64,000 nucleotides of DNA, taken from NCBI GenBank assembly GCA_965223795.1, contig CBDCXL010000002.1, positions 706,596 through 770,595 on the forward strand, given 5' to 3'. Every line of letters begins with the position of its first letter. Position 1 is the stretch's first letter. The translations under genes were made by a program, and so were the position numbers. Under the pieces are notes generated by a model. That model was given only the letters and a program-made list of their open reading frames with translations, searched no databases and was not told the DNA's origin. This document shows, piece after piece, positions 17,157 through 63,358 of the stretch. This DNA comes from Nitrospinales bacterium (GTDB lineage: Bacteria > Nitrospinota > Nitrospinia > Nitrospinales > VA-1).

Positions 17157-20100
17157 TCATTTTGCGGTGTAGGACACCAGTTCGTATTCCTCCGCATCGT
17201 TTGGAGCGGTGCGCGGAGGGTTGCGGAAATCCGGCTCCACCACCAGTTGAAGGCCGTCTTCACGCTGCCCGGCCGCGCGGATTTCGACGCCATGTTCGCT
17301 GTCGGCGAGCAGACCGAGCCTGCGCATCTGGCTGGGCGAAACGCGCAGCGTGTAGCGGCCGGGAGGCACTCGGGCAAAGAGGAAGCCGCCGTCGTAGGCG
17401 GATCGCACGCTCTGGACCACGGCCGCTTCTTCCATTTTAAGTGGCAATTTAAACCGTTCGATCAGCCGGGGCCGCTGCCCGGAGACTGCGGAAGTGAAAA
17501 ATTCCCGCTCCCGCATGTGGTGGAAATCGATCTTTCGGGCGATTTCGCCCTCGCTGTCGATGTAATGGCGCAGGGTTTGCCGTTTGAGCCGCTCTTCCAG
17601 CTCGTCGCGCTGCTTCACCAGCTCGACCTTCACGTTGGCGGCGGCGCGGCGGGACGCGCCGTGGCCGAGAAACACGCTGCCGCCAATCTCTCCGGTCGGG
17701 ATGACGGGGAAATTGATCAGGGCCGGGCTGCCCGGCCGGGGGACCACTTCCATGCCTTCGCGGGCCAGCATCCAGAACGGGTCCTCCAGGCTGGCCTGGT
17801 CCACCGACAGGGAAACCGGCTGGTAGCTGGCCAGTCCGGGCAGAAACGCCAGTCCCTGCCGGTCGGTGCGCACGCTGCGGGTGCCCTCCTGCACCTCGAT
17901 GTTCTCCAGCGGCTCGTCGGCCTCGTCGAAGGCGCCGTTGTGGTTCTTGTCGAGAAATACCCGCGCCGAGGCGGCTCCCTGGGTGGCCATGCGGTCCGCC
18001 AGCACCACCCAGCGTTTGCCGCGCGGCTCGCGCCCGAGGCTGAAGGTGAGCGAGGAGCCGAGCGCATAGTCGCCCTCATCGGAATAACTGCCCTCCATGC
18101 CGAGCGCGAACATGGGGAACCGGCGGTTGAGTCCGGCGGAATAGATGGTCTCGCGCTCGCCGTTCAGGATCCGGTCCACGGTGAGGCGGGTGCTCAGGTT
18201 GCGGGTCAGGTCGTAGTCGCCGGTCACCGAGGTGCGGGTCAGTTCGGTCACCGGCTCGATGCCGTAGTCGAGCGCGCCGCGCAAGGACAGTCTGAGGATG
18301 CGCCCGTTGGCGAGCAGGGTACCGTCGCCCTGGGTGAACGGCTCCTGCTGGCCGCCGCGGTTGAGAAACCAGTTTAAGGTGTTGGAGACGGAGACGCCGC
18401 CGAAATACATGGAGAGCCGGTTGGACAGGTCGATCTCGACGCGGCCGGATTCGCGCCGGTCCAGTTCGCCCTCGATGGTGATGGGAATGCGCGGCAGAAA
18501 GAAACCGGGGACGGCGCTGTCCAGCCTGAGGTTGGTGGTGCTTTCCAGGGGATCGGCGGCGCGCGCCACCCGTTCGCTGACGAAATCGAAAAAATGCCCG
18601 TGCTCCAGGAACAGGTTGACGCCGAACAGATCGGTCAGTGTCGCGATCTGCGCCGCCGTCCCGCCCTTGTCGTCCCGGGTGACGCCGAGGCGGGAAAACG
18701 CGCCGCCCAGCGAGGCTCTCAGTCCGAGGGTGCCGTAGTTCCTGCGGTCGCCCTCAAACGGCAGGCTGGCGATATTGCCGGCCACGGAAATGTGGCGGCT
18801 CAGGCCGCGCTCGTATTCGGCGAAGTAGCGCGCCCTGCCCTTTTCGGGTTCGAGCGAATTTGCATCCTCGCCCACCTGCACGAGGTCCTGTTCCTGAAAA
18901 TTGCCGGACAGCCGGAAATACTGCCGGCCCGCCCGCACCTGTTCCTCACCCACGAAGATGCGGCGGATGGTCTCGCGTTTCTGTCCCTGCGGACCGTAGA
19001 ACACCAGACGCAGGACGTTGGAACCGAACAGCAGCGGCACGTCGAGGAATTCGAAACGCCCGTCGGCGTTGGGCGTCACCTGGGAATCGAGCAGCACTTC
19101 GTTGCGGTACAGCTCCACCTGCCAGCCGACGGAAAGCTCGCCGCGCAGGTTGATGCGGTCGAACTCGCCCTGCCGGTAAAACGGAAAGCTGGAAATTTCA
19201 AACCCGGCTCCGGAGCGGCTGTCCGCTACCAGCGGCAGCTGCGGGTTGAAGATGTCTCCGAGCGCGAACTCGCGTGCGGAAAGCGGCCCGAACAGGCCGC
19301 CCTCGGGGTCCTTGCGCCCCAGCCGCAGGCGTACGTCGGATAACGAATCGCGTTCGTCTCCGGCCAGGAACACTTCGGAATCCATGTACAGCACATCGCC
19401 CGCAAGCAGCGCGCTGTACAGCGACTGCGCCTGGTCCTCTTCGCTCTTGTAGTTGAAGTCGTAGCTCAGGTCCATGGAAGGCCAGTCCAGTATTTTGTAG
19501 GGCGGCCGCACGCGCGGAAGCGAATCCGTTTCGGGCTGGCGTTTCGTTTCCTTCACTTTCTGCTGCCGGACCAGGCGGTTTTCCAGCAGCAGCGGTTCGT
19601 GGTTGAGGATCTCGATTTTCAGGCTGGACAGGTTGAACTCGAAATCGAGGGGAAACCAGCGGCTGAGCAGGGAGGTGTGGACGTACAGATCCTGCGGGCG
19701 GCGTTCCACGAGCCGGGTGTTGAGGGGAGAGCGTTTCCCCTCGACGGTCGCGGTGCCGTCGTTGAGATCGAGATAAAAGGCGCGGTTTTCGTTCTGATAC
19801 CAGCCCCAGGCGAAGCCGCTTTGCGGATCGACGGTGATCCCCCATTCGAGCAGAAACGCCAGCTCTCCCAGGGGCAGCAGCAGGCCCTCGCGGTGCAGGT
19901 GGCCGACCAGGTTTTCGCTGAGGATGAAATCGCGCAGGCGCACCTGCAAGACCAGCGGCGCCGTTTCGGAGCGATCGAACACGCTTTCCTGCTCTCCTGC
20001 GCGGAGGGCGCGCTTGCTCACGACGGGCGGTGCCTTCTGGCCGGGTGCCGGACTTTCCCCGCCGGATCGTTCTCCTGCACGGAGGGCGTGTTCGCTCGCG

Positions 20101-20414
20101 ACGGACGGCGCTTTCTGGCCGGGTGCCGGACTTTCCCCGCCGGATCGTTCTCCTGCGCGGAGGGCGTGTTCGCTCGCGACGGACGGCGCTTTCCGGCCGG
20201 GTGCCGGACTTTCCCCGCCGGATCGTTCTCCTGCGCGGAGGGCGTCTCCGCTTCCGCCGGGCGGCGGTCCGGTGCCATCGGGGCGCGCGGGTATCGCTTC
20301 GCTGCCTGCCCCGCCTTTGCCGGGCGCACCGGCGGCGGCCTCGGGATGGGCAAACTCCGCCCTTCCCGCCGTCAGGACAAATAGCACCAATGCGATGAGC
20401 GCCCGAAACCGCAT
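17157..20414 (-). CDS. Usher-like outer-membrane fimbrial biogenesis protein with C-terminal carboxypeptidase-regulatory-like domains
   Basis: Signal peptide; GWQVELYRNEVLLD...VPLLFGSNVLRLVFYGPQGQ; beta-rich barrel region; RVFLDKNHNGAFD; downstream of the chaperone and pilin genes. Confidence 0.75.
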   Translation of the reverse strand: MRFRALIALVLFVLTAGRAEFAHPEAAAGAPGKGGAGSEAIPARPDGTGPPPGGSGDALRAGERSGGESPAPGRKAPSVASEHALRAGERSGGESPAPGQKAPSVASEHALRAGERSGGESPAPGQKAPPVVSKRALRAGEQESVFDRSETAPLVLQVRLRDFILSENLVGHLHREGLLLPLGELAFLLEWGITVDPQSGFAWGWYQNENRAFYLDLNDGTATVEGKRSPLNTRLVERRPQDLYVHTSLLSRWFPLDFEFNLSSLKIEILNHEPLLLENRLVRQQKVKETKRQPETDSLPRVRPPYKILDWPSMDLSYDFNYKSEEDQAQSLYSALLAGDVLYMDSEVFLAGDERDSLSDVRLRLGRKDPEGGLFGPLSAREFALGDIFNPQLPLVADSRSGAGFEISSFPFYRQGEFDRINLRGELSVGWQVELYRNEVLLDSQVTPNADGRFEFLDVPLLFGSNVLRLVFYGPQGQKRETIRRIFVGEEQVRAGRQYFRLSGNFQEQDLVQVGEDANSLEPEKGRARYFAEYERGLSRHISVAGNIASLPFEGDRRNYGTLGLRASLGGAFSRLGVTRDDKGGTAAQIATLTDLFGVNLFLEHGHFFDFVSERVARAADPLESTTNLRLDSAVPGFFLPRIPITIEGELDRRESGRVEIDLSNRLSMYFGGVSVSNTLNWFLNRGGQQEPFTQGDGTLLANGRILRLSLRGALDYGIEPVTELTRTSVTGDYDLTRNLSTRLTVDRILNGERETIYSAGLNRRFPMFALGMEGSYSDEGDYALGSSLTFSLGREPRGKRWVVLADRMATQGAASARVFLDKNHNGAFDEADEPLENIEVQEGTRSVRTDRQGLAFLPGLASYQPVSLSVDQASLEDPFWMLAREGMEVVPRPGSPALINFPVIPTGEIGGSVFLGHGASRRAAANVKVELVKQRDELEERLKRQTLRHYIDSEGEIARKIDFHHMREREFFTSAVSGQRPRLIERFKLPLKMEEAAVVQSVRSAYDGGFLFARVPPGRYTLRVSPSQMRRLGLLADSEHGVEIRAAGQREDGLQLVVEPDFRNPPRTAPNDAEEYELVSYTAK
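19993..20244. repeat. 78-bp in-frame tandem repeat, 3 units plus a partial fourth
   Basis: Units start at 19993, 20071, 20149 and 20227; encode ALRAGERSGGESPAPG(R/Q)KAPSVASEH on the minus strand. Confidence 0.95.
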
Positions 20415-35631: not shown

Positions 35632-35747
35632 ATCCTGCGCGGATGGCGAGTTTGCTCACGACGCGCAGTCCTTTTTGATTTCGGTTCGAACTTTTTCTCC
35701 CGGCCTCGACCAATCCTGCGCGGATGGCGAATTTGCTCACAAAGGGC
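35628..35747 (+). repeat. tRNA-linked direct repeat, period 81 bp
   Basis: ACCAATCCTGCGCGGATGGCGA(G/A)TTTGCTCAC at 35628 and 35709, 31/32 identical. Confidence 0.92.
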
Positions 35748-35800
35748 AAGGACGTTTTACCGGAACTACAGACGGTTTCTGCATAAAAATCATCGAAATC

Positions 35801-46789: not shown

Positions 46790-47134
46790 CTCGCCGTGGA
46801 GGCGGCTTGCTGACGACGCGCTGGATTCTCTGAGTTTGTGCCGTACGTTTGCTCCGGGCCTCTCCTCCTTCGCGGAGGGCGGGTTTGCTCACGTCGCGCG
46901 TTGCCCACTGTGTATAAGGGCGCAGTCTTAGGCCCCGTCCCCACTCCTTCGCGCAGGGCGAACCTGCTCACGTCGCGCGTTGCCCACTGTATAAGGGCGC
47001 AGTCTTAGGCCCCGTCCCCACTCTTTCGCGCAGGGCGAACCTGCTCACGTCGCGCGTTGCCCACTGTGTATAAGGGCGCAGTCTTAGGCCCCATCCCCTC
47101 TCCTTCGTGCAGGACGGATTTTCTCACGTCCCGC
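46790..47134 (+). repeat. tRNA-linked tandem array of 75-79 bp units (5 cores)
   Basis: Unit starts at 46790 (degenerate), 46865, 46944, 47021 and 47100 (partial); the three middle units are nearly identical. Confidence 0.93.
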
Positions 47135-53862: not shown

Positions 53863-55242
53863 GTGGACGAACGACCGAGAAAATCGGGATTCAATACAGG
53901 ATACCTGCGGCTGCTCAAGGGCAACAAGCCGTTTCGCCACCTGTGGTACGGCCAGGTGATCTCCGAACTCGGGGACTGGCTCAACAGCCTGGCGATTTAC
54001 GCCCTGATCCTCAAGATGGGCGGATCGGGCACGGCGATGGCGGGCGCGATGGTGGCGAAGCTTCTGCCGATTTTTTTCGTGAGTCCGATCGCCGGTGTGA
54101 TGATCGACCGCTTCCCGCGCAAATCGGTGATGATCGTGAGCGACGTGCTGCGCTTCATCGTCGTGCTGGGCTTTCTGCTGGTGGGTGGACCGGAAGACCT
54201 GTGGCTCCTGTACACGCTCGTCGTCGTCGAGATCTCGCTTGCGGGTTTTTTCGAGCCGGCGCGCAGCGCCATCATTCCCTCGCTCGTCCCCACCAAGGAC
54301 CTGGTGACGGCCAACGCGCTGAGCGGTTCGACCTGGTCGGTGATGCTGGCGTTCGGCGCGGCGCTGGGCGGCGTGGTGGTGAGCCTTCTGGGCATCCGCG
54401 CTGCGTTCATCCTGGATGCGGTGACGTTTCTGTTTTCCGCCTGGTTCATCGCGCAGATTCCGAAATCGGCCGACGCCGCGCGCAAAATGGACGCAAGCGG
54501 GGCCAGCGGCTGGCAGAACCTGATCGACGGGGCGCGCTACATTCTGGTGCGGCCGGTCATCCTGGCGCTGACGCTGATCAAGTCCGGGCTCGCGGTCTCC
54601 GGCGGCGCGATGACGCTGATCCCGCTGTTCGCCAACCGCCTGTTCACCAGCACCTCGGCCATTTCGATGAGCATCGGCATCATGTACTCGTCGCGCGGCA
54701 TCGGCGCCGCCATCGGCCCAATCCTGGTGAAGCACTTTTTCGGCGAATCCTCGCGCGCGCTGCGCATCTCCATCTTCGTGTGCTTTCTGTTGAGCGCCGC
54801 TTCGTACGTTGTGTTCGCCCAGTCGGAGTCTCTTTTGGGCGCCTGCATGGGCATCGGGCTGGCGACGCTGTTCGGTTCGGTCATCTGGGTGTTCAGCTCT
54901 TCGCTCATCCACCTGGAAGCGGAAGAACGGTTTCTCGGCCGGGTGTTCAGCACGGAGATGGGGCTTTTGACCCTGGTCATGGGGCTCAGCAACTGGGGCG
55001 TGGGCTATGCGGTGGATCACCTGTCGCTTTCGCTCACCGCGGTGACGCTGTGGATGGCGGGACTGCTGGCGCTGCCGGGCCTGCTTTGGGGCGGGTTCAT
55101 CACTCTCGAACGCGGCAAGCTCAAGCCGGGACCGTGCTATTCCACTGAGTGCCCGGTGGATGCCAGCGGCTTCAACCCGCTGCCCGTCAAACCCGGCCTC
55201 AATCCGGAAACGGTGGCGAAGGACGACTCCCAAACCCTTTGA
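53863..55242 (+). CDS. MFS transporter (DHA3-like)
   Basis: FRHLWYGQVISELGDW and GVMIDRFPRK motifs; about 12 TM. Confidence 0.92.
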   Translation: MDERPRKSGFNTGYLRLLKGNKPFRHLWYGQVISELGDWLNSLAIYALILKMGGSGTAMAGAMVAKLLPIFFVSPIAGVMIDRFPRKSVMIVSDVLRFIVVLGFLLVGGPEDLWLLYTLVVVEISLAGFFEPARSAIIPSLVPTKDLVTANALSGSTWSVMLAFGAALGGVVVSLLGIRAAFILDAVTFLFSAWFIAQIPKSADAARKMDASGASGWQNLIDGARYILVRPVILALTLIKSGLAVSGGAMTLIPLFANRLFTSTSAISMSIGIMYSSRGIGAAIGPILVKHFFGESSRALRISIFVCFLLSAASYVVFAQSESLLGACMGIGLATLFGSVIWVFSSSLIHLEAEERFLGRVFSTEMGLLTLVMGLSNWGVGYAVDHLSLSLTAVTLWMAGLLALPGLLWGGFITLERGKLKPGPCYSTECPVDASGFNPLPVKPGLNPETVAKDDSQTL

Positions 55243-55260
55243 GACGCAGCCCGGCTTCAA

Positions 55261-55483
55261 TCCTCCTCAAGCAGCCCGCTGTTACAGGGATTCCTTAATT
55301 ATAAAATGCCCGGCGAGGGATTTTCGGACAGCGGCTCGATTCCCTCAGGAACGGCTCAAGGTTATGAGGATTCGTTGATGATAAAATGCCCGGCGAGGGA
55401 TTTTCGGACAGCGGCTCGATGGTCTTGTGAGCAGCCCGATACTAAGGGGATTGATTGATTATAAAATGTTCAGCTAAAGATTT
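55261..55483. repeat. 80-bp-period array overlapping the 3' end of the 55442-55798 gene
   Basis: Exact 40-mer at 55301-55340 and 55381-55420; partial third copy at 55461; intervening 40-mers are related but diverged. Confidence 0.92.
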
Positions 55484-55798
55484 GCCGATGTCGAAGTGGT
55501 GGATCACGGAGGTGGCGTCGTCGCGCTGACGCGCCTTGTCGTAAGCGGCGGCGACGCGCTCCCGATCGCCCAGGGCGTGCAGCACGCCGACGGAAACCAG
55601 GCTGGTGGCCAGATCGGGGGACAGGGAATAGTCGGCGACCAGGGCCGTCATCTGCACGCGGTCCGCTTCGTTCAGAGCGCGGTAGGTTTCCACCAGCCGC
55701 ACCATGTTTTCTTCCCCGAACTGATTGGCGTACCCGGAACCGATCACCGGTTCGTGATAGAGGCTGAGGATCTTCTCTTCGAGGCTGGGTGCGTTCAT
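55442..55798 (-). CDS. Hypothetical helical protein
   Basis: 118-aa ORF downstream of def, host-like codon usage. Confidence 0.78.
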   Translation of the reverse strand: MNAPSLEEKILSLYHEPVIGSGYANQFGEENMVRLVETYRALNEADRVQMTALVADYSLSPDLATSLVSVGVLHALGDRERVAAAYDKARQRDDATSVIHHFDIGKSLAEHFIINQSP

Positions 55799-55873: not shown

Positions 55874-56470
55874 TCATGACCCCGCCACCGTGTTTTTACC
55901 CGCACCGCTGCCCTGCGGGTCCACGGCCGGTTCCGCATCCATCCAGTAGGTCTGGTATTCATCCATGTAGGCGAGCTTGGTGAAATCCTTCATGCGGTCC
56001 AGGAACACGATGCCGTTGAGATGGTCGATCTCATGCTGCAGCACGATGGCCAGAAACCCTTTCGCCTGAACCACGGATTTTTTCCCGGTGCGGTCGTAGG
56101 CTTCCAGCGTCACTTCGCGCGAGCGGGAAACATAGCCTCTGAAATCGATCAGGCTGAGGCAGCTCTCCCAGCCCATGACCGTTTCTTCGCTGTATCGGGT
56201 GATCTTTGGATTGACCAGCACCGTCAGAGGGATCAAGGCTTTACCGGGATACCGCTCATTGTCCACGCATTCTAAGACCACGATCTGCACCGACCGCGAC
56301 ACCTGCGGCGCCGCCAGACCGACGCCGCCTTCCTTGCGCATGGTCTCGATCATAGCGTCAATGAAAACCTGAATTTCGCTGTCGGGGTCCTTGAGCGCCT
56401 CAAGGTCCACCGGTTTCGATTTCTGTCTTAAAATCGGATTCCCCAGCCGGGCCACTTTCAATGCCGCCAT
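55874..56470 (-). CDS. def: Peptide deformylase
   Basis: GVGLAAPQ, ESCLS and QHEIDHLNG motifs. Confidence 0.96.
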   Translation of the reverse strand: MAALKVARLGNPILRQKSKPVDLEALKDPDSEIQVFIDAMIETMRKEGGVGLAAPQVSRSVQIVVLECVDNERYPGKALIPLTVLVNPKITRYSEETVMGWESCLSLIDFRGYVSRSREVTLEAYDRTGKKSVVQAKGFLAIVLQHEIDHLNGIVFLDRMKDFTKLAYMDEYQTYWMDAEPAVDPQGSGAGKNTVAGS

Positions 56471-56784
56471 CTTCAGTTTCCTTTCGATGCGTCTTGCGCG
56501 TGAATGCGTGTTCAAAAACCGTTGCGGTTTGACTCCCCTGCCATGACGAATGGGTGCTAAATTTAAAAGTATACTTCACTCCGCTTGTGTTGTCCCGCCG
56601 CAACGCTTGCTTTAAAAGGGCTTGACGGACTTATTGTAACACAGGGGGCCTCAGGACGGCTTAAAATCTGGCTCTGACGGCCCATCCGCCCGCAAAGCCC
56701 CGGTTTTTTTGATTGACTTTTAAACGTGTTTTTTTATAATGCACGCGCCGGAATAACAATATTCATGAAAGGAGGGGATGGTCT

Positions 56785-60988: not shown

Positions 60989-63358
60989 ATGAAGATTGTT
61001 TGCCCGAGTTGTCAAACGGCATACGACGTCGACCTGCCGGCCGGGGCACAGAAGAAAGTCACGGCGCGGTGCGTTCGCTGTAAAAGCCTGTTCCGGGTGA
61101 ACCCGGCCGCGGTCCCCATCGAGGCCGGGCCGTCCGCAACCCCGAATATCCCCACCCGGGCACTGGAAAACGCCGCCGCGCAGGAGCCGGATCCCGCTTC
61201 CGAAGCCCCCCCCTTTCCGACCGCCAATGGATCGAACTCTGCTTTCGACACTGAAGTAGAAGAGGACAACCTCAACGAATTTCTAAACCGCTTCAGCGAA
61301 GACGACCCGGAAGACACGGACACCATCCCAAAAATTTTCGACGACCCTCCGGCCGTCCCGCAAAACGGCGAGACCCAGAATGAAGCGGCCGCGGACCTCA
61401 CTGAGGACGCGCACGATTTCTCCAATGAAGACCTGGACGAGCTGCTCGACACCATCATCAGCGAAGAGCTGGAAACCTCACCGGCTGAACCCGAACCCGC
61501 CCCGCCACCGGTACAGGATGAACCTGAAAATTTCGAGGCGCTGCTGAACGATCTCATCGCGGAGGAACCCGATAGCGGGCTCGAAGCGGATGGTCTGGAA
61601 GAAGCCGGACTTGCCGCGGAGAACGCGGCTCCTGTGGACTCGGTTGAGGAAACTCCCGCGGACGCCGGTCTGGAGCCTGTGGAACCCGCTGAGGCGGAAG
61701 AGGACGCGATGTTGTCCACTCCCGAATCGGTGGAAGAGCCCGTTGACACATTCGATGATCTGTTGGACCAGCCGCTGGAAGAAACTGCGGAGGAAACGCA
61801 ATCCGCAGATACGGAAACTCCGGAACCGGCAGCGGAATCGGTAATGGAAGAAACAAAATCCACGGACACGGAGGACGATCCGGAAGCCGCGCTGGCCGAG
61901 GCGTTCGCGGCTGAGAATCCGGAAACGGACACAGCCGTTGACGAAGAATCTGAAGCACCTGCCGCTCCCGCCGCAGAAGAACCCGAAGCCGTTCAAGAGG
62001 AACAGGCCGCCGAAGACACCGCGGATGAAGCGGAAAGCCAGGAAGAAATGAGCGACGAGGACCTGTGGGCGCAGGCCTTCGCCGATCAGGAAGCGGCGGA
62101 GCAGGCGGCAGGAGAAACGCAAGCAACCGCAGAGGAAGAAATGCAGGAGGTTGCGGAAACGGACGCTGCCGCTGTTGAAGAAACCGAAGCCGCCGCCGCA
62201 GACACTGCGGATGAAGCGGAAAGCCAGGAAGAAATGAGCGACGAGGACCTGTGGGCGCAGGCCTTCGCCGATCAGGAGGCGACGGAACAGGCGGCGGACG
62301 ATAAAGAGGAAACCGCGCAAGAAGAAGCCGCCGCCGCAGACACGACGGATGAAACGGAAAACCAGGAGGAAATGAGCGACGAGGACCTGTGGGCGCAGGC
62401 CTTCGCCGATCAGGAGGCGACGGAACAGGCGGCGGACGATAAAGAGGAAACCGCGCAAGAAGAAGCCGCCGCCCCAGATACCGGCGATGAAGCGGAAGAG
62501 ACGCAGGCAAACGAAGAGCAGGACGAAGCCGATGATTTCGACGCCATCGTCGGCGCTGATGACGAGGCTGAAGGGGAAAAAGAACAGGACAGCGAATGGG
62601 ACGATGCGGAGAGCGGTTACGACCAATACGACGATGACGATGACGATGACGACATCGAGGACATCAAACCGCGCGGCAAGCGGATCGGCCCTTTCACCCT
62701 GCCTGCGACCAAAACCGGCAAAATGATCCTGACGGGCAGCGTCGCGGCGGTGCTGCTGACCGCGGGCGGCGTGTACTTCGGACTGCAGACTCTGGCGCCG
62801 CCGGAATTGACAGAGATGGGCAAGGACAGCGCCGCCGTTCCGGAAGGCCTCACTCCCAAAACGGACGCCGCGTTCACCGATCCCGGCGATCCTGCGGCTG
62901 CGGGATCTCCGAGCGCACCGGACACGTCTGCGGAAACGCCGGGTGCGGCACAGCCCGCCCCGCCGGCGGCCGCGGAGCCGCCCAATCCGCCCGTAGCGGA
63001 CAGCGCGCCGGACGTCAATCCGGCCCTGCTCGCCGCGCTCGCCCCCACGGACAACGCGGTGCAGATCAACACCATCCTGCCGGTGGCCTACAACGTGAAC
63101 GACATCCGGGTTCTCAGCTTCGTACTGGAAATGGAGCTTTCCGACGCGCGCAGCGCCAAGGTGGTGCGGGAGGCGCTGCCGCTGTTTGAAAAGATCACCA
63201 TCAACACGGTTGAGAAGTTACTTGAGAAAAAGTTCTTCAACGACGTGCTGTACGTGAAGGAAAAACTCAAAAAAGATCTGCGCACCAATTTCAACAAGAC
63301 CATCGAAGGCGGCGGGCGGGTCAAGAAAATCGACTTCAAAAACTTCACCATTCAGTGA
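60989..63358 (+). CDS. MJ0042-type zinc ribbon + long acidic region + TM + FliL-like C-terminal domain
   Basis: CPSC...CVRC; acidic linker with repeats; TM helix; C-terminal KEKLKKDLRTNFN...VKKIDFKNFTIQ is FliL-like. Confidence 0.72.
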   Translation: MKIVCPSCQTAYDVDLPAGAQKKVTARCVRCKSLFRVNPAAVPIEAGPSATPNIPTRALENAAAQEPDPASEAPPFPTANGSNSAFDTEVEEDNLNEFLNRFSEDDPEDTDTIPKIFDDPPAVPQNGETQNEAAADLTEDAHDFSNEDLDELLDTIISEELETSPAEPEPAPPPVQDEPENFEALLNDLIAEEPDSGLEADGLEEAGLAAENAAPVDSVEETPADAGLEPVEPAEAEEDAMLSTPESVEEPVDTFDDLLDQPLEETAEETQSADTETPEPAAESVMEETKSTDTEDDPEAALAEAFAAENPETDTAVDEESEAPAAPAAEEPEAVQEEQAAEDTADEAESQEEMSDEDLWAQAFADQEAAEQAAGETQATAEEEMQEVAETDAAAVEETEAAAADTADEAESQEEMSDEDLWAQAFADQEATEQAADDKEETAQEEAAAADTTDETENQEEMSDEDLWAQAFADQEATEQAADDKEETAQEEAAAPDTGDEAEETQANEEQDEADDFDAIVGADDEAEGEKEQDSEWDDAESGYDQYDDDDDDDDIEDIKPRGKRIGPFTLPATKTGKMILTGSVAAVLLTAGGVYFGLQTLAPPELTEMGKDSAAVPEGLTPKTDAAFTDPGDPAAAGSPSAPDTSAETPGAAQPAPPAAAEPPNPPVADSAPDVNPALLAALAPTDNAVQINTILPVAYNVNDIRVLSFVLEMELSDARSAKVVREALPLFEKITINTVEKLLEKKFFNDVLYVKEKLKKDLRTNFNKTIEGGGRVKKIDFKNFTIQ
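62014..62480 (+). repeat. Intragenic repeats encoding EEMSDEDLWAQAFADQEA x3
   Basis: GAAATGAGCGACGAGGACCTGTGGGCGCAGGCCTTCGCCGATCAGGA at 62045, 62231 and 62369. Confidence 0.92.

Follow-up and report, generated by a model that had tools for sequence, protein, structure and literature searches.

Three 80-bp copies of a gene end at a convergent junction in a Nitrospinales bacterium, probably produced by lineage-specific tandem triplication

Direct repeats known as attL and attR are left behind by integrative elements that insert at the 3' end of a gene or a tRNA and restore it. In the CDI and Rhs systems, orphan cassettes encode whole toxin domains, are accompanied by immunity genes, and enter the main gene by recombination. 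Diversity-generating retroelements have pairs of template and variable repeats with a reverse transcriptase nearby, and the mismatches between the paired repeats are confined to template adenines. The locus described here, in a 64,000-nt stretch of DNA from a Nitrospinales bacterium (the window), shares with attL/attR a displaced partial 3' end downstream of a functional end, the two differing in sequence. With CDI/Rhs cassettes, it shares silent alternative C-terminal pieces arrayed downstream of an expressed gene, with homology at the 5' edge, and with the repeat pairs of diversity-generating retroelements, it shares a repeat at a gene 3' end, a nearby non-coding copy, and many point substitutions between them. 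Two papers (PMC3967940 and PMC6336857) concern orphan C-terminal toxin/immunity cassettes of this kind, found downstream of cdiA and rhs genes. Among the papers listed by full-text searches, none dealt with the separation of convergent bacterial genes by tandem duplication or with Nitrospina repeats. The comparisons below indicate that the array is probably a lineage-specific tandem triplication across a convergent gene junction, in which unit 1 is live, units 2 and 3 are dead relics, and no storage or swapping device is involved.

The array lies between two convergent genes, and its features are as follows.

55442-55798, minus strand: p118, a conserved gene of 118 aa with no known family, with its stop and final 13 codons inside repeat unit 1
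55874-56515, minus strand: peptide deformylase gene, upstream of p118
53863-55242, plus strand: MFS transporter gene, converging on p118
55412-55491, minus strand: unit 1, the live copy, with codons 106 to 118, the TAG stop at 55444-55442, and a 30-nt tail
55332-55411, minus strand: unit 2, a putative relic, out of frame, reading KSLAGHFIINESS and a stop in GC-rich codons
55252-55331, minus strand: unit 3, a putative relic, out of frame, reading KSLAGHFIIKESL and a stop, with a tail that adjoins the stop of the convergent MFS gene
55381-55420, no strand assigned: upstream member of a pair of perfect 40-nt direct repeats, across the junction of units 1 and 2
55301-55340, no strand assigned: downstream member of the pair of perfect 40-nt direct repeats, across the junction of units 2 and 3

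A repeat search delimited three in-register, head-to-tail copies of 80 nt (55252-55331, 55332-55411, and 55412-55491) at a spacing of 80/80, with 75% and 61% identity to the reference copy, and Tandem Repeats Finder reported 55287-55468 with a period of 80, 2.3 copies, 78% matches, and 0% indels. The homology of units 1 to 3 spans their full length, with the non-coding tails and the junction sequence included. The ORF of p118 ends in KSLAEHFIINQSP and its stop within unit 1, and the corresponding peptides of units 2 and 3, each also followed by a stop, sit 80 and 160 nt downstream of this live end with the frame lost. The three gene ends spaced by 80 bp that had been reported in the original prediction were thus confirmed in all particulars by both searches and by the reading of the units; the location given there was right, but the repeat is slightly wider than had been described, covering 55252-55491. 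The 40-nt exact repeat, an exact run of 40 at offset 80, takes in 9 nt at the end of a tail and 31 nt at the start of the unit that follows, and outside this perfect tract, the units are about 50% identical. Between units 2 and 3, there are 3 differences in the first 40 nt and 17 in the last 40 (Fisher p=0.0005). At unit positions 1 to 31, all 11 of the 11 variable sites separate unit 1 from units 2 and 3, and positions 32 to 80 are star-like, with 7, 7, and 9 sites backing the three possible pairings. On the plus strand, a 50-aa ORF (55306-55458) has its ATG inside the unit 3 relic and no ribosome-binding site that could be seen, and is probably spurious; a 14-codon ORF starting in the unit 2 relic has the same first 11 residues.

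The p118 gene was matched in 40 of 41 related Nitrospinaceae/Nitrospinota genomes, the only miss being a 75%-complete genome, and it has no Pfam match at the curated threshold, no NCBIfam match, and no PDB sequence match. Its C-terminal sequence HHFDIGKSLA[E/D]HF is conserved. Orthologue loci numbering 151 were taken from related genomes (20), metagenome contigs (80), and genome contigs (51), three sets that overlap, and they yield 120 distinct end sequences. Every one of the 151 loci ends with the motif K/x-S-L-A-x-H/Y-F followed by 1 to 7 residues, in which the residue after the A is D in 91 loci, E in 58, Q in 1, K in 1, and G in none. Because the orthologues end with the same peptide, unit 1 represents the true conserved gene end; none of the 151 loci ends before this peptide. 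Units 2 and 3 both carry Gly at the site that is Asp or Glu in 149 of the 151 loci, and downstream pseudo-ends, searched for by peptide motif, were found at 1 of the 151 loci, namely, this one. The array had been proposed to store alternative C termini of the upstream gene. A Gly at a nearly invariant acidic site argues against units 2 and 3 as stored, usable alternatives, and we read them as dead relics.

Of the 42 nt compared between units 1 and 2, 12 differ, 8 of them at third codon positions, and 11 of the 14 codons, the stop included, keep their meaning. When 12 changes were placed at random 20,000 times, 0.035% of the placements kept this many codons (P=0.00035), and the other reading offsets tried kept 5 to 6 of 14, so the earlier observation that many of the differences are synonymous is borne out beyond what chance would give. 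The third-position pattern would arise because only unit 1 stayed under purifying selection on the protein, and constraint on the relics would not be needed to account for it. The common stop position of the three units is simply a matter of common descent. Joining of the units by read-through or frameshifting was rejected on account of the 80-nt offset and of the unrelated peptide encoded in frame after the TAG, in agreement with the original argument that read-through is no explanation.

A convergent MFS match is present at 129 of the 151 loci, with a median stop-to-stop distance of 3 nt, and the 199 nt between the p118 and MFS stops here is the maximum. The distance is 11 nt in G001, the only genome of the same genus (74% protein identity), which is without the array. 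The 3' ends of the two genes overlap in about half of the 129 loci, with recurrent classes of -19 and -43 nt; the most negative stop distances (-189 and -261) may be artefacts of stop extension. A nucleotide echo test on 146 loci picked out only this locus (19/24) and the metagenome contig L099 (22/24), with the next best at 18/24. At positions 1813 to 1882 of L099, a 35-bp tandem duplication (two copies, 94% identical) spans the stop of the p118 orthologue and the antisense MFS stop, so that a 16-nt spacer takes the place of the common 19-nt overlap. The L099 duplication is independent and young, and its position across the same two gene ends indicates that this junction duplicates by ordinary means, with each gene keeping one copy. 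A search for closer relatives gave a best protein identity of 59% in metagenome contigs and likewise in genome contigs, from which records of or near the source genome were possibly left out. Shorter repeats are also present around the end of the MFS gene.

55167-55178, 55194-55205, and 55252-55263, plus strand: a 12-mer present three times, with GFNP/GLNP codons for the C-terminal tail of the MFS protein

Unit 3 ends with the third copy of the 12-mer, and units 2 and 1 end with weaker versions of it. Compared with the genus-mate, this genome has 6 additional nt in the MFS tail, and the recurrence of the 12-mer together with these 6 nt suggests repeated small slippage events at the junction. 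In addition, the unit tails contain a match of a 7-mer and a 9-mer to the MFS 3'-end sequence, interrupted by 14 nt, a hint that the duplicated segment may also have carried MFS 3'-end sequence.

The proposed course of events is that an 80-bp segment at a tight convergent junction, running from p118 codon 106 through the stop into a short spacer, would have been duplicated in tandem to three copies after the split from the genus-mate, likely by replication slippage or unequal crossing-over. Only the first copy would have been joined in frame and translated, leaving copies 2 and 3 as untranslated relics in the 199-nt spacer. The live copy would accept only protein-keeping changes, so that differences between live and relic copies would gather at third positions, and later, a 40-nt tract across the unit junction would have been made identical at the two relic junctions by gene conversion or constraint. 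The full-length homology and the 40-nt exact repeat at both junctions point to tandem triplication rather than separate foreign arrivals, and duplication is also favored by the conserved syntenic junction without the array in relatives and by the orthologous peptide carried by unit 1. As is expected of a tandem-duplication relic, the copies are head to tail with a constant period, the first is continuous with the gene and the later ones are out of frame, the sister genome has no array at the orthologous site, the genome contains the unit at this locus only, and there is an independent 35-bp example at the same junction in L099. Different from such a relic are the heavy recoding of the live copy at synonymous sites beside native-like relics, the 61 to 75% identity of the units without indels, which is odd for an old neutral array, and the perfect 40-nt tract between the relic junctions. 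Two further points count against this reading: the live copy is more derived than the relics, which would not be expected of plain neutral relics, and divergence inside the units is very uneven.

The GC3 of p118 is 0.84 over codons 1 to 105 and 0.15 (2/13) over codons 106 to 118, with 0.62 and 0.54 in the relic copies, so the contrast previously described between an AT-rich live end and the GC-rich relics and gene body holds when measured by GC3. Codons used in unit 1 include TTA, TCT, ATA, CCT, and GCT, whose within-family shares are 0.02, 0.06, 0.07, 0.09, and 0.10, respectively. Among 1422 long ORFs, 1 has a GC3 this low in its last 13 codons, and 220 of 696,435 windows of 13 codons are as low. 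The recoded patch begins at the repeat boundary. Compared with the orthologue of G001, units 2 and 3 match at 24 of 27 nt, whereas unit 1 matches at 19 of 27, and a global alignment pairs the G001 gene end with unit 2, codons 105 and 106 being separated by a gap of exactly 80 nt. When changes were polarized with G001 and genus g13, unit 1 showed 6 derived changes in its first 27 nt, all of them synonymous, and the relics showed 1 to 2, with the shared GAG>GGG among them. Codons that encode the same residue as in G001 differ from it in 7 of 9 cases in codons 106 to 114 versus 23 of 76 in codons 1 to 105 (Fisher p=0.008). With polarity taken from one genus-mate and from codon-bias similarity, the downstream copies look older or native and the live end looks derived, and the order that had been proposed, with the downstream copies as the older ends, is upheld by the G001 matches and alignment. 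AT-richness alone would be uninformative as a sign of foreign origin, since a GC-ending codon becomes an AT-ending one through nearly any synonymous change, and the anomaly would instead be the density of changes. The live copy has indeed been rewritten in rare synonymous codons, for which the tandem-duplication model by itself does not account.

A rewritten live end in front of native-like copies could also be expected if the 3' end of the gene had been replaced one or more times by incoming homologous DNA, leaving site-specific scars or acting through homology-facilitated illegitimate recombination. The live end has foreign-looking low-GC3 codons and a 21-mer that is closest to low-GC3 relatives (18/21), the 21-mers of the relics are similar to those of high-GC3 relatives, the genus-mate among them (19/21), and the G001 alignment treats unit 1 and its tail as an 80-nt insertion before a native-like end. 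However, the tail of unit 1 is homologous to the relic tails with the same junction, which places unit 1 in the same tandem array, and both supposed old ends have the same damaging Gly and 31 identical nt, so that they would be copies of each other rather than successive functional ends. AT-ending codons would, moreover, be expected from almost any synonymous change away from GC-ending ones. Replacement of the coding part of unit 1 by a short foreign patch is unlikely: any such patch would be about 42 nt at most, with native sequence on both sides, and no donor was found among the 151 loci, the best matches (18/21) coming from genomes 53 to 57% identical in protein. In the 3.92-Mb genome, the repeat unit matched only itself, other matches having an E value of at least 0.44 and spanning 15 to 33 nt, and it had no match in phages and plasmids (blastn, E<=0.01) or in viral contigs (two exact patterns). 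With Pfam, the ORFs from 47.4 to 63.4 kb yielded no integrase, transposase, or reverse transcriptase; the neighbors have housekeeping functions (Hsp20, pyruvate kinase, cytochrome c/EB_dh, MFS, deformylase, HU, FimV/SPOR, and SLT). Unlike attL/attR repeats, the copies 80 nt apart have no element, integrase, or cargo between them, and their non-coding tails are repeated too. Incoming DNA as the source of the gene ends is therefore quite improbable. The original prediction had favored serial replacement by incoming ends, through att-like integration scars or through cassette acquisition and C-terminus swapping. The first is at odds with the homology of the units through their tails, the same junction, and the constant 80-nt spacing, which are the signature of tandem duplication; scars are at odds with the contiguous repeats and the lack of a recombinase, of element DNA, and of any phage, plasmid, or viral match; and swapping is at odds with the whole-unit tandem homology, with the Gly in both relics, and with nothing lying between the copies. 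A dispersed REP- or MITE-like repeat is ruled out by the single locus in the genome, where the 40-mer, searched genome-wide, is likewise unique.

In favor of programmed diversification or switching of the C terminus, as in orphan CDI/Rhs toxin-tip cassettes or diversity-generating retroelements, there is nothing beyond the layout, in which silent partial copies follow the expressed gene end. The payload here, however, is 13 residues of a small conserved protein, in whose orthologues the tail after HF comprises 1 to 7 variable residues, and no immunity-like genes, polymorphic toxin gene, or reverse transcriptase accompany it. In place of the toxin domains and immunity genes of CDI/Rhs cassettes, the 80-nt units, without toxin or immunity ORFs, hold 13 codons of a protein with a housekeeping context, with a damaging substitution and no switching seen, and the gene itself, of 118 aa and without a family match, is kept in 40 of 41 relatives. 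A diversity-generating retroelement was rejected: there is no reverse transcriptase nearby, the differences are not adenine specific, with 2 of 12 (unit 2) and 1 of 12 (unit 3) at a template A, and they are mostly synonymous, which is the opposite of diversification. Switching was also absent at the read level in the Logan contigs of four runs, and it is the least credible of the explanations considered, with next to no probability left to it. In run X1, which is probably the source sample, the contigs match the assembly with 0 differences and break only at the repeated 31-mers, and the 100-nt piece between the repeated 31-mers has a depth of 12.6 versus 17 and 15.7 in the flanks, a single-copy depth that indicates no hidden extra units. 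A mangrove metagenome (X5) contains a near-identical strain, represented by a 244-nt contig corresponding to 55396-55639, which extends over unit 1 into the beginning of unit 2 and has 2 substitutions, one of them a synonymous GCT>GCG at codon 109. No joints or indels at the array were found in the Logan contigs of the four runs, three of which, the metagenome runs, cover 10 to 11 of 30 bins. Variation in unit number, which had been raised as a question, was accordingly not seen in these contigs, patchy as the metagenome coverage is.

Folding of each unit on both strands gave structures no better than those of shuffled sequences (z, -0.58 to +1.44), as did folding of the 271-nt region (z, +0.59). 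Rfam at the gathering threshold found only two tRNAs in the window, and a scan for consensus promoters and terminators found nothing in the array. Intrinsic terminators combine a stable G+C-rich stem with a T-run behind it. Both relics contain, within the 40-nt tract and in both orientations, a weak hairpin made of an A-tract, 3 G-C pairs, and a T-tract (-5.3 and -5.6 kcal/mol), the stem of which is completed by the Glu-to-Gly codon change (GAG to GGG). The live copy gives -3.1 and -0.1 kcal/mol with other folds, and G001 is without a hairpin of the relic form. We read the 40-nt identical tract as a possible recent gene-conversion tract or a constrained element. The latter would fit exaptation of the relics as non-coding elements, in which the copies would still have originated by duplication and the 40-nt tract would be kept by selection as a candidate terminator, RNA-end, or binding site between the convergent genes. 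The perfect tract in two copies whose remaining sequence is so diverged, the closeness of the relic 5' part to the ancestral sequence, as judged from the 24/27 match to G001, and the bidirectional hairpin agree with such a role. Exaptation is nevertheless unlikely, as the hairpin is weak and missing from the minimum-energy folds of whole units, the consensus scan yielded no terminator or promoter in the array, the tract is known from two copies in one genome, and a single recent gene conversion accounts for the identity equally well.

The relics appear to homogenize each other, judging from the 40-nt identical tract, and they carry the damaging Glu-to-Gly change and sit 80 and 160 nt from the live end. 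Selection for synonymous divergence of the live end would lower conversion or deletion with the Gly-bearing relics, because rare synonymous codons break the homology of the live end with them. Tentatively, and with more doubt than confidence, the live end may thus have been driven into rare synonymous codons as a barrier against conversion or deletion by the relics, a suggestion linked to the notion that tandem duplication recurrently separates overlapping convergent genes.

The period of the array had also been connected with that of repeat arrays near tRNA genes. These belong to a family with a dispersed core of about 44 nt, often arrayed with a period of 75 to 81 bp, and its arrays in the window, found as profile matches with E values from 3e-11 to 0.03, are as follows.

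19994-20264: array of the tRNA-linked family
35633-35756: array of the tRNA-linked family
46865-47134: array of the tRNA-linked family

The family profile was built from 29 copies and searched with nhmmer --max, with filters off and E<=100. Genome-wide, there are 31 profile matches at E<=1e-3, and 10 family copies have a same-strand tRNA (Met, Val, Phe, and three Leu) no more than 400 nt upstream of them. Several family copies directly follow the CCA end of a tRNA, and some follow a CCA-like end without a called tRNA. The array at the end of p118 could be a diverged member of this family of about 78 bp made by the same process, given its similar period (80 versus 75 to 79), a common 7-mer, and the fact that tandem repeats with a period of 75 to 83 bp are common in the genome. 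However, the profile that finds the three known arrays finds nothing in 55252-55491 at E<=100, the nearest weak match (E=13, 55051-55067) being inside the MFS gene, and 30 of the 31 family matches are on the plus strand, whereas the only resemblance of the array is on the minus strand. The link is thus very unlikely, with a period that is similar and a sequence that fails the profile; by this profile comparison, the array is refuted as a sequence member of the family, and a common mechanism, namely, a preferred slippage length, may still be shared.

Other tandem repeats in this genome were also recorded. A 138-bp tandem repeat (2.3 copies, 93% identical) lies at 62186-62497, inside the gene for a 789-aa zinc-ribbon protein (60989-63358). 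Elsewhere in the genome, an 83-bp tandem duplication (contig C1, 636218-636376; 1.9 copies, 85%) is located at the junction of two same-strand high-GC3 ORFs and appears to repeat the start of the second gene, making it another duplication that overlaps a gene terminus.

The feature at the end of p118 is real, and its mechanism is ordinary. It calls for caution, as downstream alternative C termini with synonymous-looking differences can come from plain tandem duplication; the synonymous look misleads because only one of the copies is under selection. When a tight or overlapping convergent junction is duplicated in tandem, each gene obtains a private end, and this has happened twice independently here, in this genome and in L099. 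Neither this nor the sharp rare-codon patch of the live end, which is limited to the duplicated stretch, alters existing knowledge of gene-end swapping systems. If selection against exchange with the relics caused the rare-codon patch, the live end of p118 would be a natural example of synonymous sites shaped by the avoidance of recombination.
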